DNA of 27,930 nucleotides from a virus (lineage: Duplodnaviria; Heunggongvirae; Uroviricota; Caudoviricetes), in IMG/VR virus record IMGVR_UViG_2529292904_000023; one strand, written 5' to 3'. This document shows, in pieces, positions 10,954 to 24,921 of the stretch. Every line of letters begins with the position of its first letter. Within the stretch, counting starts at the first letter, position 1. Under the pieces are notes generated by a model that worked only from the letters and a program-made list of their open reading frames with translations, had not been told where the DNA came from and made no database searches. A program made the translations under genes and the position numbers.

Positions 10954-11549
10954 ACAGTTTAACGGCAAATAACCGTTTGTCGCAACAGCTGGTGGTCAGC
11001 GTCGCTGAACACCTGTTGTTACGGCATGAATGCAGATTACCAAATCACCTGGCTGTAAGTAACCACAGAGAACTTTACCTGACTGTGGGGGGCGAGTTGT
11101 GCAGGAACTTAACCGCTGGTTTCGTGACGGAAGAGGGCTTTATGTCCATGTTATTCGTTGGGAGCCAGAAACACAGCGCGTTATCTATCTTCGCAAAGAC
11201 TACCCGCATGAGTGCTTTAGTCCTTTGTGGAAATTCAGGCGTGATTTTGTTGAGTGTGAAGGACCACCAGCATATTGATTCTGCAATTCCGGGACGTTAC
11301 ACTGCTCAGGCACCTTATAAAGCGGGTGCCGGGATTGGCGTCCTGAAATTCGCACATGCGCATAACCGCGCTTCAGCGGTTTTTTTGCGCACGTTTCCTC
11401 ACATCCAAATTATGGTGGGGCGTGCAGGGGCATCGAAAGATGCGCCGGGGTCATGTGCGACCGGTTACGCCAACCCTGTACGTCTCACCACCTCTGTGAT
11501 TGGCGTCCCATGTGGTGAGTTTTCAAAATTCGCACATGAGGATGTCACT

Positions 11550-15823: not shown

Positions 15824-16819
15824 GTGACCGTGAGAGCACTACTGACCCCTGAAATTGCCCCGCGTATGGGGATCGTATTGTTCAGACCAGGTTCAGAGCT
15901 GATGCCCCTGTTTATGCAGGGGCGTGTCCTGCTGGAGCCTGAGCCGGAACGTTATTCATCTTTCGCCAGTGGTGCCGTTCCGGCGGCATCACAACCGCTG
16001 GCGGATGATCCTGCCGTTCGGGCCGTGTTCCGCAATGATGCAGTGATCCGTCGTGCTGGTGGCGTGGAATGTCTTGAACGCTGGTTACTTCGTGAAAAAG
16101 GTTGCCAGTGGCCTCATTCCGACTGGCACAGCGAGAACATGACCACAATGCGACACTCGCCGGGCGCAATCCGTCTGTGCTGGCACTGCGATAACCAGCT
16201 GCGCGATCAGTTCACGGAACGGCTGGAATCAATGGCAACGGATAACTGTACCCGCTGGGTGTTGTCTGTTGTGCGTCGGGATCTCGGTTTTGATGACAGT
16301 CACGTTGTGACAATGCCGGAACTGTGCTGGTGGCTGATTCGTAATGACCTGGCGGATGCCTTACCGGAAAGTGCAGCCCGTAAGGCACTGAGATTACCGA
16401 AGCCTGTTGTGCCGTCTGTCACCCGGGAAAGTGACCTTGTGCCTTCGGTTCCTGCCACCAGCATCATCCAGGATAAAGCGAAAAAGGTGCTGGCGCTGAA
16501 AGTGGATCCGGAGTCGCCGGAGTCTTTTATGTTACGCCCAAAACGTCGCCGCTGGGTTAATGAAAAGTACACGCGCTGGGTTAAGACACAGCCGTGTGCA
16601 TGTTGTGGAAAGCCCGCTGATGATCCCCACCACCTGATAGGCCACGGTCAGTGTGGAATGGGTACAAAAGCGCATGACCTTTTTGTGTTGCCTTTGTGCA
16701 GAAAGCATCACGACGAGCTGCATGCGGATACCGTGGCATTTGAAGAGAAGTATGGCTCTCAGCTGGAGCTGATATTTCGTTTTATCGATCGTGCGCTGGC
16801 AATTGGCGTACTGGCGTAA
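15824..16819 (+). CDS. DUF968-like protein with a C-terminal HNH/zinc-finger-like motif
   Basis: C-terminal CACCGKPADDPHHLIGHG...CRKHHDELH; GTG start at 15824 or 15830. Confidence 0.55.
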   Translation: MTVRALLTPEIAPRMGIVLFRPGSELMPLFMQGRVLLEPEPERYSSFASGAVPAASQPLADDPAVRAVFRNDAVIRRAGGVECLERWLLREKGCQWPHSDWHSENMTTMRHSPGAIRLCWHCDNQLRDQFTERLESMATDNCTRWVLSVVRRDLGFDDSHVVTMPELCWWLIRNDLADALPESAARKALRLPKPVVPSVTRESDLVPSVPATSIIQDKAKKVLALKVDPESPESFMLRPKRRRWVNEKYTRWVKTQPCACCGKPADDPHHLIGHGQCGMGTKAHDLFVLPLCRKHHDELHADTVAFEEKYGSQLELIFRFIDRALAIGVLA

Positions 16820-16832
16820 GTGGAGAACGAGC

Positions 16833-17585
16833 ATGAACCTTGAAGCCTTACCGAAATATTACTCCCCGAAATCTCCAAAACTGAGCGATGACGCACCGGC
16901 GACAGGCTCTGGTGGTTTAACAATTACGGATGTGATGGCTGCGCAGGGGATGGTGCAGTCAAAAGCACCGCTTGGGTTTGCTTTATTCCTGGCAAAAGTT
17001 GGTGTTCAGGATCCTCAGTTTGCGATTGAAGGTCTGCTCAATTACGCGATGGCACTGGATAACCCGACATTGAATAAATTGAGTGAAGAAACCCGGCTAC
17101 AGATCATTCCTTACCTTGTGAATTTTGCCTTTGCTGATTATTCCAGGTCTGCGGCAAGTAAGGCTCGCTGTGAGCATTGTGCTGGTACTGGATTTCATAA
17201 TGTATTGCGCGAGGTGGTGAAACACTCCAGAAGCGGGGAATCTGTTATTAAGGAAGAGTGGGTGAAGGAACTATGTCAGCATTGTCATGGTAAGGGAGAA
17301 GTCAGCACAGCATGCAGAGGGTGCAAGGGTAAAGGTATTGTCCTGGATGAAAAAAGAACCCGGCTTCATGGCACACCTGTTTATAAGGTTTGTGGGCGTT
17401 GCAATGGAAACCGGTTTAGCAGTTTACCAACCACACTGGCGCGGCTTCATGTCCAGAAGCTGGTACCAGACCTGACGGATTATCAGTGGTACAAAGGATA
17501 TGCAGATGTCATTGATAAACTGGTTACAAAGTGCTGGCAGGAAGAAGCATATGCAGAGATACAATTGAGAAAGGTGACAAGATAA
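16833..17585 (+). CDS. Q: Late-gene antiterminator Q (phage 82 / QuuQ-like type)
   Basis: 250 aa directly upstream of the pR'/tR' candidate and the tRNA island; four Cys-x2-Cys pairs (CEHC, CQHC, CRGC, CGRC); GGAGA Shine-Dalgarno. Confidence 0.6.
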   Translation: MNLEALPKYYSPKSPKLSDDAPATGSGGLTITDVMAAQGMVQSKAPLGFALFLAKVGVQDPQFAIEGLLNYAMALDNPTLNKLSEETRLQIIPYLVNFAFADYSRSAASKARCEHCAGTGFHNVLREVVKHSRSGESVIKEEWVKELCQHCHGKGEVSTACRGCKGKGIVLDEKRTRLHGTPVYKVCGRCNGNRFSSLPTTLARLHVQKLVPDLTDYQWYKGYADVIDKLVTKCWQEEAYAEIQLRKVTR

Positions 17586-18087: not shown

Positions 18088-18163
18088 GGCCCTTTAGCTC
18101 AGTGGTGAGAGCGAGCGACTCATAATCGCCAGGTCGCTGGTTCAAATCCAGCAAGGGCCACCA
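18088..18163 (+). tRNA. tRNA with CAU anticodon (Ile2/Met type, ileZ-like)
   Basis: Cloverleaf folded by hand: 7-bp acceptor stem, GCTC/GAGC D-stem, anticodon loop CTCATAA, T-loop TTCAAAT, encoded CCA. Confidence 0.85.
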
Positions 18164-18172
18164 TATCACATA

Positions 18173-18249
18173 CCGCCATTAGCTCATCGGGATAGAGCGT
18201 CAGCCTTCGAAGCTGGCTGTGCGGGGTTCAAGTCCCCGATGGCGGTCCA
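18173..18249 (+). tRNA. tRNA-Arg (anticodon UCG)
   Basis: Acceptor CCGCCAT/ATGGCGG, anticodon loop CTTCGAA, T-arm CGGGG-TTCAAGT-CCCCG, encoded CCA. Confidence 0.8.
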
Positions 18250-18262
18250 TTATCAGCATCAT

Positions 18263-18339
18263 GCGTTGTTAGCTCAGCCGGACAGAGCAATTGCCTTCTA
18301 AGCAATCGGTCACTGGTTCGAATCCAGTACAACGCGCCA
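18263..18339 (+). tRNA. tRNA-Arg (anticodon UCU)
   Basis: Acceptor GCGTTGT/ACAACGC, anticodon loop CTTCTAA, T-loop TTCGAAT, encoded CCA. Confidence 0.85.
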
Positions 18340-18626
18340 CACCACACTTATCTGCCCTGACTCTCTTTTGCGGGCTTTTTATTACAGGAAAGACACCGGA
18401 CAGTGAAATGTTAAATGCCTCACAATTCAGGTAGTCGACTGTTGCCTGACATGCTGAGCGTTTGTTAAAAAAATCCTGCATGATGAATCCCCCTGGGCGG
18501 CGGGGCATAATGACAGATGTTTGGTTGCGTATTGTATAGGCAAGTTGCGGATTCTGTCTGGTCATTGCAGAATTCACCGGGAGGCACCCGGCATCATGCT
18601 GTATACAGAGATTAGGCATATATCCA

Positions 18627-18652
18627 GGCTCCTCATCGCAGGAGCCTTTTTA
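18627..18652 (+). terminator. Rho-independent terminator
   Basis: GGCTCCT-catcgc-AGGAGCC followed by TTTTT. Confidence 0.6.
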
Positions 18653-18656
18653 CATG

Positions 18657-18682
18657 CAAAAAAAGCCCGAGTAGGTTCGGGC
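18657..18682 (-). terminator. Convergent minus-strand terminator
   Basis: A-run then GCCCGA-gtaggt-TCGGGC; reads as hairpin plus T-run on the minus strand. Confidence 0.5.
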
Positions 18683-18864
18683 AACAGCATGAGATACTTG
18701 CATTGTCATTTTTATCGTGTGGATTTTAACCAGGGTTTATCAGGCTGCGCAACTGCGTGGCCTTTTTTCATTTCTTGGGCTGTAGTCCCCGTGTGTCATT
18801 CAGGCTTCCGGACTACAGCCCACTCCATATCTGATTTAATACACTATCCCGGCCGGGAGGAATA

Positions 18865-20718: not shown

Positions 20719-20868
20719 AAAGTGAGCCAGTCAAATGGAAGGTATCGTTAAACTCACCGGTAGTGTCAGTGGGTCGTCTGAGATGCCTGCATGAGTTATC
20801 AGAGCCATCAGTACTTAACTGGTGGCTTTTTTTATTGTTGTCAGCTTCCGGATAACGGGAGACGGGGT

Positions 20869-21087: not shown

Positions 21088-21645
21088 ATGAACCATGAAG
21101 AAATGAATCAGCGCTTCAGTCGCCTGGAAAATGAAATTGCTGAACTGAATAAAAAACTGTCGACGCTGATGCATTCTGAAGATGAAAAAAAACGCCGCGA
21201 TGAGCAGTTTGCTGCGTTTGACGATTATTGTCGGAAAGTGATGAGCAAAAATCTCGCAGAGTGTTTCAGTATTCATAATGATAATTTCAGTGAGCTGGAA
21301 TGGGAGTGTAACCGGCCATCCTTTGTTGTATCCGGTGATGCCGGGAAAATAACCATCTCAGAAAATGGGAAAGTAACACCTCCATCGCACCAGCACAGTG
21401 AGGAGCTCATTGAATTTGCCATTGATTACCTGAAGAACAATAAAAAGCAGGGGCTGATGAAGCGCGTTGGCCGTTGCATGGGATATCTTCAGGTAGCCGC
21501 TGAGATTGAAGCGCTGGCCAGTGGTGCTGATAAGGATGCAATTGTGCGGGAGGCTCTTCTTCGTGATTTTAATACTCCACCCTTTAAAAAAGTGCCGGCT
21601 TACTGGCTTCATCCGGGGCTGACTTATCTTAAAGTGCGTATTTAG
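21088..21645 (+). CDS. Hypothetical 185-aa protein inserted between holin and endolysin
   Basis: ORF 3 nt after the holin stop; N-terminal heptad-like segment (LENEIAELNKKLSTL); no TM segment or recognised motif. Confidence 0.5.
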   Translation: MNHEEMNQRFSRLENEIAELNKKLSTLMHSEDEKKRRDEQFAAFDDYCRKVMSKNLAECFSIHNDNFSELEWECNRPSFVVSGDAGKITISENGKVTPPSHQHSEELIEFAIDYLKNNKKQGLMKRVGRCMGYLQVAAEIEALASGADKDAIVREALLRDFNTPPFKKVPAYWLHPGLTYLKVRI

Positions 21646-21681: not shown

Positions 21682-22215
21682 ATGAACACCAAAATCAAAT
21701 ACGGCCTGTCGGCTGCCGTTCTGGCGCTGATTGCCGCTGGTGCGTCTGCGCCTGACATTCTCGACCAGTTTCTGGATGAAAAGGAAGGCAATCACACCAC
21801 GGCATACCGTGATGGTGCAGGTATCTGGACCATCTGCCGTGGTGCCATCATGGTGGATGGCAAACCTGTCGTTCCGGGCATGAAGTTGTCGAAGGAAAAA
21901 TGCGACCAGGTTAACGCCATTGAGCGTGATAAAGCGCTGGCGTGGGTGGAGAAAAACATCAAAGTGCCATTGAGCGAACCCCAGAAAGCGGGGATCGCGT
22001 CATTCTGTCCGTACAACATTGGTCCCGGTAAGTGTTTCCCGTCGACGTTTTATAAACGAATTAATGCAGGTGATCGCAGGGGAGCGTGTGAGGCGATTCG
22101 CTGGTGGATTAAGGACGGTGGCAGAGACTGCCGTATTCGTTCAAACAACTGCTACGGTCAGGTATCCCGTCGTGACCAGGAGAGCGCGCTGGCGTGCTGG
22201 GGTATCGACAGATAA
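21682..22215 (+). CDS. R: SAR endolysin (T4-lysozyme-like)
   Basis: Weakly hydrophobic Gly/Ala-rich N-terminus (GLSAAVLALIAAGASA); catalytic E-x8-D-x5-T pattern (EGNHTTAYRDGAGIWTICRG). Confidence 0.8.
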   Translation: MNTKIKYGLSAAVLALIAAGASAPDILDQFLDEKEGNHTTAYRDGAGIWTICRGAIMVDGKPVVPGMKLSKEKCDQVNAIERDKALAWVEKNIKVPLSEPQKAGIASFCPYNIGPGKCFPSTFYKRINAGDRRGACEAIRWWIKDGGRDCRIRSNNCYGQVSRRDQESALACWGIDR

Positions 22216-22329
22216 GCAGAATATTTTGCTGAAAAATAAAGCATGGCCACGCGGGCGGATAACATGAAATCCTGCGAACTGGCGAAACGTAAGTGAATAA
22301 AAGTAAAAACCCCGTTTGTTGGCACCAAG

Positions 22330-22364
22330 CGGGGTTTTGTGTTTCCTGACTCCGGAAAAGTCAA
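22330..22364 (+). terminator. Rho-independent terminator between R and Rz
   Basis: 9-bp stem (CCCCGTTTG / CAAGCGGGG, one G-U pair) followed by TTTTGTGTTT. Confidence 0.6.
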
Positions 22365-22374
22365 AGGAGAAAGT

Positions 22375-22512
22375 GTGTTTGATTTTAGCAAACTGATTCG
22401 GGAGATTCGAGTGATGGCTGAAAAATTATCCACCTGGAAGTTCATTCTTATCTGGCTGGTGTTTGTGATTATGGCCTCCGGTTATTTCATCGGTCAGATA
22501 CGCTGGTGGTGA
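22375..22512 (+). CDS. Candidate micro-ORF, 45 aa (32 aa from the internal ATG at 22414), single hydrophobic segment
   Basis: Not in the track; AAAGGAGAAA Shine-Dalgarno before GTG 22375; hydrophobic core [20 protein letters not shown]; stop 1 nt before the Rz start. Confidence 0.3.
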
Positions 22513-22513
22513 A

Positions 22514-22978
22514 ATGAACCGCGTACTGTGCGTGGTCATCATTGCCCTGCTGGTGGCCTGTGGTGCGCTTAGTCTGGGGCTGAATCATTACCGTGATAAC
22601 GCCATTACCTACAAAGCCCAGCGCGACAAAAATGTCAGAGAACTGAAGCTGGCGAACGCGGCAATTACTGACATGCAGATGCGTCAGCGTGATGTTGCTG
22701 CGCTCGATGCAAAATACACGAAGGAGTTAGCTGATGCGAAAGCTGAAAATGATGCTCTGCGTGATGATGTTGCCGCTGGTCGTCGTCGGTTGCACATCAA
22801 AGCAGTCTGTCAGTCAGTGCGTGAAGCCACCACCGCCTCCGGCGTGGATAATGCAGCCTCCCCCCGACTGGCAGACACCGCTGAACGGGATTATTTCACC
22901 CTCAGAGCGCGACTGATAATAATGCAAAAACAACTTGAAGGGGCACAGCTATACATTCGAGAGCAATGCCTCAGATAA
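22514..22978 (+). CDS. Rz: Rz i-spanin
   Basis: N-terminal TM anchor, coiled-coil periplasmic domain, 154 aa, Rz1 embedded in the +1 frame. Confidence 0.8.
22734..22916 (+). CDS. Rz1: Rz1 o-spanin lipoprotein
   Basis: Lipobox LVVVGC, proline-rich (PPPPP), 60 aa, fully embedded in Rz. Confidence 0.75.
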
Positions 22979-24414: not shown

Positions 24415-24921
24415 ATGGCCTTTTTATTGAATAAAAGTGATATGGCCTCCTCCATCGGTATCTCTGTTCAGGCATTTGATAAATGGGGCGTTCCTCCTGT
24501 TGAACGTCGGGGGAGGGAAGTTTTATATGACGTTAAAACTGTACTGGAGATAGATCGCGAGCGGCGACAACACAATCAGAGAACACCTGATGACGGGGGA
24601 GAACTGGAGGAAAGGCTGCTTCGGGCCAGAGCTGAACTGACAGAAGAACAGGCTGTAGCTCAAAAACTTAAAAATCAGGTAACCGAAGGTAAGCTCATCG
24701 ATTCAGACTTCTGCGTTTTCGCCCTCAGCAAACTGGCGATGGCATTGTCCAGTACGCTTGATTCCATTCCGTTATCCATGCAGCGACAGTTCCCGGATTT
24801 AACGCCACGTCATATTGACCATCTGAAAACCCTTATTGCAAAGGGGGCAAATCAGTGTGCGCGGGCAGGGGATAAATTACCGGATTTACTCGATGAATAT
24901 ATCAGAGCAACAACTGAATAA
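24415..24921 (+). CDS. nu1: Terminase small subunit, Nu1-like
   Basis: Parallels the recalled lambda Nu1 (EVLYD, FCVFALSKLA, LPLSMQRQFPDL, LKTLIAKG); start ATG 24415 with GGAGAGGAG Shine-Dalgarno. Confidence 0.8.
   Translation: MAFLLNKSDMASSIGISVQAFDKWGVPPVERRGREVLYDVKTVLEIDRERRQHNQRTPDDGGELEERLLRARAELTEEQAVAQKLKNQVTEGKLIDSDFCVFALSKLAMALSSTLDSIPLSMQRQFPDLTPRHIDHLKTLIAKGANQCARAGDKLPDLLDEYIRATTE

Follow-up and report, generated by a model that had tools for sequence, protein, structure and literature searches.

A conserved small membrane protein gene and its hairpin leader between the endolysin and spanin genes of a lambdoid prophage

In the prophage analysed here (IMG/VR record IMGVR_UViG_2529292904_000023; the whole stretch of 27,930 nucleotides is referred to as the window), 298 bp separate the endolysin gene R from the i-spanin gene Rz, which raises the question of what this gap encodes and how it is expressed. 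The window is a lambdoid prophage that resembles an Stx phage, with the stx genes absent, and over the R-Rz segment (22150-22600) it shows 100% identity to E. coli O55:H7 DEC5E. After Q, the tRNAs and a pair of sRNAs, the late region runs from a SASA esterase gene through an S21-type pinholin gene (PF04971), a 185-aa ORF and the endolysin gene to the gap and Rz (Table 1). As the endolysin gene directly overlaps the Rz gene in K-12 Qin and DLP12, with no insert, the gap is an insertion. The spacer following the endolysin stop (22216-22305) is common to Sakai Sp15, where the ant gene comes next, and partly to a Salmonella locus (L007); the homology to Sp15 stops at about 22303-22305, where the cassette described below begins. 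This spacer is kept whatever insert comes next, and contains GGATAACA.GAAATCC.

The surroundings hold several further elements. Past Q and the tRNAs lies a convergent sRNA pair at 18449-18717, STnc100 (plus strand, 175.6 bits) and AgvB (minus strand, 56.2 bits), and the interval from Q to the esterase has the Stx-phage layout with the stx genes missing. The 185-aa ORF between holin and endolysin (21088-21645) belongs to phrog_1085; other cassettes carry a 114-aa YdfR family protein there. An isrK element (11310-11386) stands beside a C4 antisense RNA (11408-11495), like the antirepressor control regions of the P1/P7 type. The terminase large subunit (24836-26437) is flagged by RefSeq as incomplete (pseudogene) in the identical DEC5E prophage, so the prophage may be defective.

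Table 1. Features of the R-Rz gap and its neighbours (window coordinates unless a locus is named).
Feature	Position	Strand	Remarks
Q antiterminator	16791-17585		PF03589
Three tRNAs	18088-18336		between Q and the sRNA pair
SAR-type endolysin R	21682-22215	+	PF00959 (2.4e-24), phrog_7; PGAP name 'lysozyme'; upstream neighbour
Non-coding spacer adjoining R	22216-22295	+	outside the mobile cassette
Palindromic two-way intrinsic terminator (predicted)	22296-22346	both	A-tract 22296-22309, stem-loop 22306-22338, T-tract 22335-22346
Predicted antisense RNA, ~80 nt	22296-22376	-	5' anti-SD, small hairpin, terminator, U-tail; predicted from promoter motif and two-way terminator
Leader hairpin 2	22343-22370	+	TGACT 22347-22351 / AGTCA 22359-22363; pyrimidine tract can pair with the SD
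Shine-Dalgarno (SD) AAAGGAGAAA	22364-22373	+	GGAG 22366-22369, 5 nt before GTG
Micro-ORF	22375-22512	+	GTG start, 45 codons + TGA; phrog_6632; amphipathic N-terminal helix, one TM helix, RWW
Candidate extended -10 TGCTAAAAT	22382-22390	-	inside codons 3-6; weak -35 TCGAAT at 22410-22405
Candidate internal start	22400-22416	+	SD GGGAG 22400-22404, ATG codon 14 at 22414-22416; 32-aa form
Stop-start junction TGA-A-ATG	22510-22516	+	into Rz
Rz i-spanin	22514-22978	+	PF03245 (1.4e-52); downstream neighbour
Rz1 o-spanin	22734-22916	+	embedded in Rz; PF06085 (5.4e-20)
Sakai 48-aa ORFs	L201 14749-14895; L202 5625-5771; L203 6887-7033	- (L201)	end 7 nt before Rz

The micro-ORF, its product and its distribution

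A preliminary description of the gap had noted a strong Shine-Dalgarno sequence after a terminator and a 45-codon ORF encoding one hydrophobic helix and ending 1 nt before Rz. These observations were confirmed: AAAGGAGAAA precedes the micro-ORF with a 5-nt spacing to the start codon that is kept in nearly all relatives, residues 24-42 of the translated product form a TM helix with a mean Kyte-Doolittle hydropathy of 2.13, and the TGA (22510-22512) is followed by a single A (22513) and the ATG of Rz (22514). AlphaFold2 models the peptide as a single helix (residues 4-44, pLDDT 86.7). Its N-terminal helix is strongly amphipathic and net basic, and only RWW follows the TM helix; the C-terminal RWW is periplasmic and the peptide is a conserved small inner-membrane protein. 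The whole length of the peptide matches the phrog_6632 profile (E 1.2e-29, residues 1-45 on positions 1-45), and PGAP lists the same peptide as WP_000459345.1 in some E. coli genomes, while it is unannotated in DEC5E. Both entries (hypothetical 45-aa phage protein) describe the same family, without a function, the leader, an antisense element or the distribution.

To compare alleles, 197 retrieved modules were reduced to 47 distinct 45-codon alleles with 42 peptide variants. The reading frame was intact in all 47 alleles and in the divergent relatives; E. coli, Edwardsiella, Yersinia and Brenneria all preserve it. In codons 15-45 synonymous sites have diverged almost to saturation (pS 0.685) at a pN of 0.211, corresponding to a dN/dS of about 0.13. 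Frame conservation and a preference for synonymous changes had been set beforehand as the check on this ORF, and both were found. By this pattern of substitution the micro-ORF is a genuine gene, and the view of it as a real small membrane-protein gene held. A profile search of 1.8 billion representatives returned 41 clusters at 50% identity, with lengths of 42-54 residues, which share the motif E-[ILV]-R-x-M...W-[KR]-F, the TM helix and often RWW. Hosts of the homologues include E. albertii, E. fergusonii, Salmonella, Citrobacter, Edwardsiella, Yersinia, Izhakiella, Sodalis, Brenneria, Providencia and others. Close relatives begin the ORF with GTG or TTG in practically all intact alleles, and ATG is never used.

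Searches of the peptide against Pfam, NCBIfam and PADLOC gave no match, and the literature searched by accession, peptide sequence and PHROG id contained no paper mentioning it. Both strands of 22100-22620 were also searched against Rfam at gathering and permissive thresholds; no family was found, the best match being a sub-threshold rimP-leader on the minus strand. Two other ORFs in the region were discarded, a 17-codon ORF at 22246-22299, which is not conserved, and a 95-aa minus-strand ORF at 22158-22445, which crosses the terminator.

Hairpin and ORF move as one unit, mostly between endolysin and i-spanin genes. The membrane protein is encoded beside an endolysin gene in more than 150 sampled loci as well as in the window, and six unrelated families are represented among these endolysins (Phage_lysozyme, GH19, GH108, Peptidase_M15_4, a 138-aa type and a 115-aa type), while the neighbouring spanins are of at least five kinds, including PF03245 and two DUF2514 types. 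At 28 loci the cassette lies between an upstream baseplate-spike gene (Gp138_N / GpV apex) and a downstream gene for a 117-aa protein, a context that speaks against a role confined to lysis. Divergent members are found by themselves, with ParE, RelB and HicAB genes as neighbours ahead of the terminase (locus L205), or after tail genes, and tandem cassettes occur in E. fergusonii, Dryocola and the loci L205 and L210. Of 5,426 complete E. coli genomes, 869 (~16%) carry the cassette, which also occurs in Stx1, Stx2a and Stx2c phages, H-19B among them. It sits inside the toxin-release and lysis operon of Stx phages, where its annotation is inconsistent or absent.

The stand-alone relative in L205 has a TTTACA-17-TATCAT promoter about 350 nt upstream. 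This locus (2600-4000) consists of two tandem units of ~700 bp, each with such a promoter, two terminator-like hairpins, a leader and a small ORF, surrounded by ParE, RelB/YafQ and HicAB genes upstream of the terminase. A sister family, which we call ORF-A (MSEKGA...WW), shares both the hairpin leader and the C-terminal IRWW and is found in tandem with the micro-ORF cassette (L011 3678-3908; L026 2526-2746; L021 3134-3271; L205 3620-3879); it also has an internal Met with an SD-like sequence before it.

The hairpin leader and the constrained first codons

The micro-ORF is preceded by a hairpin at 22306-22338 of 13 pairs, 6 of them G-C, with a loop of 7 (AAAACCCCGTTTG/TTGGCAC/CAAGCGGGGTTTT, then GTGTTTCC). 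Hairpins of such quality number 5 on the plus strand of the window versus 3 in total in 20 randomised windows (both strands, stricter scan), far above the random frequency, and with its stem-loop and U-tract the element is a predicted intrinsic terminator. A strong terminator had been placed at 22330-22364 before; its existence is upheld, whereas its position is corrected to the hairpin given here with a T-tail reaching to about 22346. Since an A-rich tract (22296-22309) precedes the hairpin, the terminator has a palindromic, two-way shape: read on the plus strand, the 13-bp stem is followed by TTTTGTGTTT, and read on the minus strand a stem with one mismatch is followed by TTTTTACTTTTATT. In agreement, the hairpin matched its own reverse complement in nhmmer.

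A G+C-rich hairpin with a 5' A-tract and a 3' T-tract was present in 72 of 72 distinct upstream regions, at 28-43 nt from the start codon in all but one (locus L109, 75 nt). Eight of its 13 pairs have changed on both sides, and the upper stem shows compensatory substitutions. The hairpin is therefore part of the ORF's own mobile cassette. The earlier claim that it splits the lysis operon stands only for ordinary RNA polymerase, as the prophage encodes a Q antiterminator. In lambda, Q-modified late transcription passes through intrinsic terminators.

Between terminator and start codon a second hairpin is formed whose arms covary among relatives (CCTTG/CAAGG, CGTTA/TAACG and CCTG/CAGG, corresponding to TGACT/AGTCA in the window). 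In a 31-sequence alignment of the leader, 91.5% of cells were paired versus 83.5% in shuffles (none of 500 reached the observed value) and 43-59% when the partner was slid, and 12 pairs were altered on both sides. The pairing probability of the Shine-Dalgarno sequence was 0.68 overall versus 0.50 for shuffled spacers. For the allele in the window it was only about 0.55 versus 0.51, so that sequestration is unconvincing here, though it is present in most relatives. G-U pairs are slightly in favour of the plus strand (28 vs 18 cells), which also folds better by 2.5 kcal/mol on average; the hairpins may hence act mainly in the mRNA.

Synonymous sites are frozen over codons 1-12 (pS 0.26 vs 0.69 downstream), and the leader upstream is variable. 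The frozen codons are GAT (45/45), TTT (31/31), AGC (47/47), AAA (46/47), (A/C)GG (42/42), GAG (46/46), TTG (37/37) and CGA (47/47), followed by ATG at codon 14 (47/47). Several of them are rare, including rare Arg codons, and are kept despite this. The constraint over codons 2-12 fits two overlapping signals, namely an extended -10 element on the minus strand and an internal Shine-Dalgarno sequence before Met14. The first of these, TGnTAnnnT, was present in 19 of 19 distinct 5' ends and in five of the six divergent members from metagenomes, which differ in amino acids and codons (TGCTAATGT, TGCTAGAAT, TGATAAACT, TGCTAAGAT; consensus TGATATAAT). Sampling synonymous codons put the chance of obtaining TGnTAnnnT from the peptide alone at 0.002-0.24. 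The accompanying -35 candidate is poor (3/6), and a scan for consensus promoters did not report the site at 22382-22390. That scan did return a promoter-like site on the minus strand at 22497-22468, which was set aside because it is not conserved in relatives.

Transcription from the candidate extended -10 would yield an antisense RNA of about 80 nt that ends at the two-way terminator. The predicted RNA folds with -23.2 kcal/mol (z -3.0) and leaves its 5' ACACUUUC unpaired. The A-tract 5' of the hairpin is conserved and would be the U-tail of the minus-strand RNA; its conservation would make sense if the predicted transcript ended there. The cassette may be restrained by this predicted antisense RNA of its own. 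The frozen codons could instead mark another overlapping signal, e.g., a binding site for a protein or an sRNA.

Published sRNA data were considered as well. Among the Hfq-bound sRNAs of EHEC Sakai (Tree et al., 2014, Table S2), EcOnc11/12 are located after Rz and EcOnc33 at the end of the esterase gene; this table does not cover the cassette, since the three Sakai prophages examined (Sp6, Sp10 and Sp15) carry a different insert. The PasA/PasC sRNAs were ruled out as the cassette RNA because of their position between esterase and holin. A strong terminator hairpin at 20801-20829 separates the SASA esterase from the holin gene in the window, and a 2026 preprint puts PasA/PasC at such a position.

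The second signal precedes Met14, where GGGAG lies 9 nt before the ATG. In five of the six divergent members, too, an SD-like motif stands 8-10 nt ahead of the conserved Met, and some annotators call the 32-aa form (P0022, P0023, P0029). We infer that Met14 is a candidate second start giving a 32-aa product.

Expression, possible function and alternative readings

To account for these observations together, we propose that window positions 22296-22512 form a self-contained mobile cassette inserted where endolysin and spanin genes meet in a lambdoid late operon that depends on Q, resembling a type I toxin-antitoxin locus for a small membrane protein that is expressed late under Q antitermination. 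This reading is tentative and we put its probability at about 0.4. In the prophage state, the plus-strand hairpin would stop ordinary transcription leaving R, while Q-modified late transcription would pass the hairpin so that the peptide could be made, with Rz/Rz1 expressed next via the TGA-N-ATG junction. The extended -10 in codons 3-6 would drive the ~80-nt minus-strand RNA from a start at about 22375; it would span the start codon, the Shine-Dalgarno sequence and the small hairpin, stop at the same palindromic terminator and silence leaky translation, on the same principle as type I toxin-antitoxin loci and P22 sar/ant. Initiation at Met14 from a separate Shine-Dalgarno sequence would yield a 32-aa form devoid of the amphipathic helix, comparable to the dual starts of holin genes. 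The peptide itself would be membrane-active and harmful if made early, and might act late as an accessory of lysis or host shutdown, like HokW in the release of Sp5. HokW is a type I toxin of prophage Sp5 that is made on induction and aids phage release (PMC8621323).

The likeness to type I toxin-antitoxin systems (hok/sok including the prophage-borne hokW-sokW, ibs/sib, ldr/rdl, zorO/orzO) consists in a hydrophobic one-TM peptide of less than 60 aa, a structured leader, and a candidate cis-antisense RNA of ~80 nt over the Shine-Dalgarno sequence and start codon with a predicted Rho-independent terminator; the cassette is also prophage-borne and has relatives in tandem copies. Unlike in these systems, the peptide resembles none of the known toxin families in sequence (no match in Pfam or NCBIfam), the charged region is N-terminal, and the cassette in the window is without a toxin promoter of its own, the gene lying inside a late operon. 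No plus-strand promoter was found between R and the micro-ORF in the window, and the conserved unit starts at the hairpin.

In P22, sar is a small antisense RNA whose promoter lies inside the 5' end of ant and which covers the ribosome-binding site. Similarly, the antisense promoter predicted here lies in the first codons, its RNA would be complementary to the intercistronic ribosome-binding region, and it would end at the spacer hairpin. The two differ in that ant encodes an antirepressor and the micro-ORF a membrane peptide; there is no homology between them, and the RNA of the cassette is a predicted one. The cassette is a new family with a known kind of logic. It seems doubtful to us that it is the founder of a new, widespread family of sense/antisense small-toxin modules in gammaproteobacterial prophages, with the two-way terminator, antisense promoter and dual start gating a membrane-active peptide to late lytic transcription; if true, the cassette would tune lysis and spanin expression in Stx-type phages. 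If the peptide alters lysis timing, or if translation of Rz depends on the cassette, this bears on the release of Shiga toxin and phage, and the antisense RNA, if real, would be a compact, portable way of silencing a toxic late gene and a clear example of a promoter maintained via synonymous sites.

An accessory lysis regulator working without antisense RNA appears unlikely. Here the 45- and 32-aa forms would modulate the pinholin, the SAR endolysin or the spanin in the inner membrane, much as an antiholin or 'releasin' would, and the hairpins would serve the mRNA only, by insulation and damped translation. The recurrent position between so many kinds of endolysin and spanin genes points this way, as do the slightly better folding of the plus strand and the filling of the same slot by other, unrelated one-TM ORFs (ECs_5741 in Sakai, the ORF-A type). 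A precedent is the releasin of Mu, a small TM protein that regulates a SAR endolysin (PMC9239132). The candidate dual start recalls holin/antiholin genes (lambda S107/S105, phage 21 S71/S68), which likewise encode membrane proteins of the lysis cassette from two in-frame starts, each with a Shine-Dalgarno sequence, and as in these the longer form would have extra N-terminal positive charge. However, the extension is of 13 residues versus 2-3 in holins, the peptide has one TM helix and ends in RWW without the charged C-terminal tail typical of holins, and the cassette already holds a separate S21-type pinholin. The peptide gave no match to known holin families in Pfam or NCBIfam. Moreover, the family is also found outside lysis cassettes, at the 28 baseplate loci and alone among toxin-antitoxin genes, the accompanying endolysins are not all of the SAR type, and the frozen codons 3-6 and the conserved A-tract are left unexplained by a regulator of this kind.

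It is quite unlikely, in our view, that the micro-ORF is an ordinary moron, i.e., a gene for an inner-membrane protein made in the lysogen to the benefit of host or prophage, for example in superinfection exclusion by blocking DNA entry, with the lysis cassette as a tolerated insertion site. HK97 gp15 is a precedent for a superinfection-exclusion moron. Like phage morons (lambda bor and lom, HK97 gp15), the cassette adds a mobile gene among conserved late genes, has a terminator at its flank and is missing in Qin and DLP12; its distribution over late regions is mobile and independent of context, extending to tail and baseplate clusters and to the stretch ahead of the terminase, and small TM ORFs accumulate in tandem. 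Unlike in morons, the terminator lies upstream and not downstream of the gene and is two-way, and no plus-strand promoter precedes the gene within the conserved unit. The GTG or TTG start of close relatives and the partly occluded Shine-Dalgarno sequence point to restrained expression instead, and a defence function received no match in PADLOC.

The preliminary description had also considered that the ORF might simply be a leader coupling translation into Rz, its only task being to bring ribosomes to the Rz start while the peptide is functionless. The stop + 1 nt + ATG junction in 137 of 198 related loci, with several spanin N-termini, the direct overlap of R and Rz in insert-free cassettes, and TGGTGGTGA, which supplies an SD-like GGTGG before the Rz ATG, would suit such a leader, but this reading is hardly tenable, since the frame is kept and the amino-acid sequence is under strong purifying selection where a leader peptide would be free to vary, motif and length are kept across the 41 divergent clusters, and the peptide stays conserved even with a distant or unrelated gene downstream or with no abutting gene (Izhakiella, Brenneria and the stand-alone L205). 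As the junction recurs in so many loci, the proposed cassette probably does couple translation into Rz, though only secondarily.

In Sakai Sp15, Sp10 and Sp6 the same slot holds an antirepressor gene and an unrelated 48-aa one-TM ORF (ECs_5741, ECs_1966 and ECs_5713). Unrelated one-TM micro-ORFs thus recur just before i-spanin genes, which suggests that lysis cassettes hold an unrecognised component. Loci L184-L200 (e.g., L194 at about 1995-2010) carry TTG-start alleles ending in IKG, with an ECs_5741-like ORF (MSDKLIT...) 2 nt past the stop; several small TM ORFs can therefore stack before Rz.
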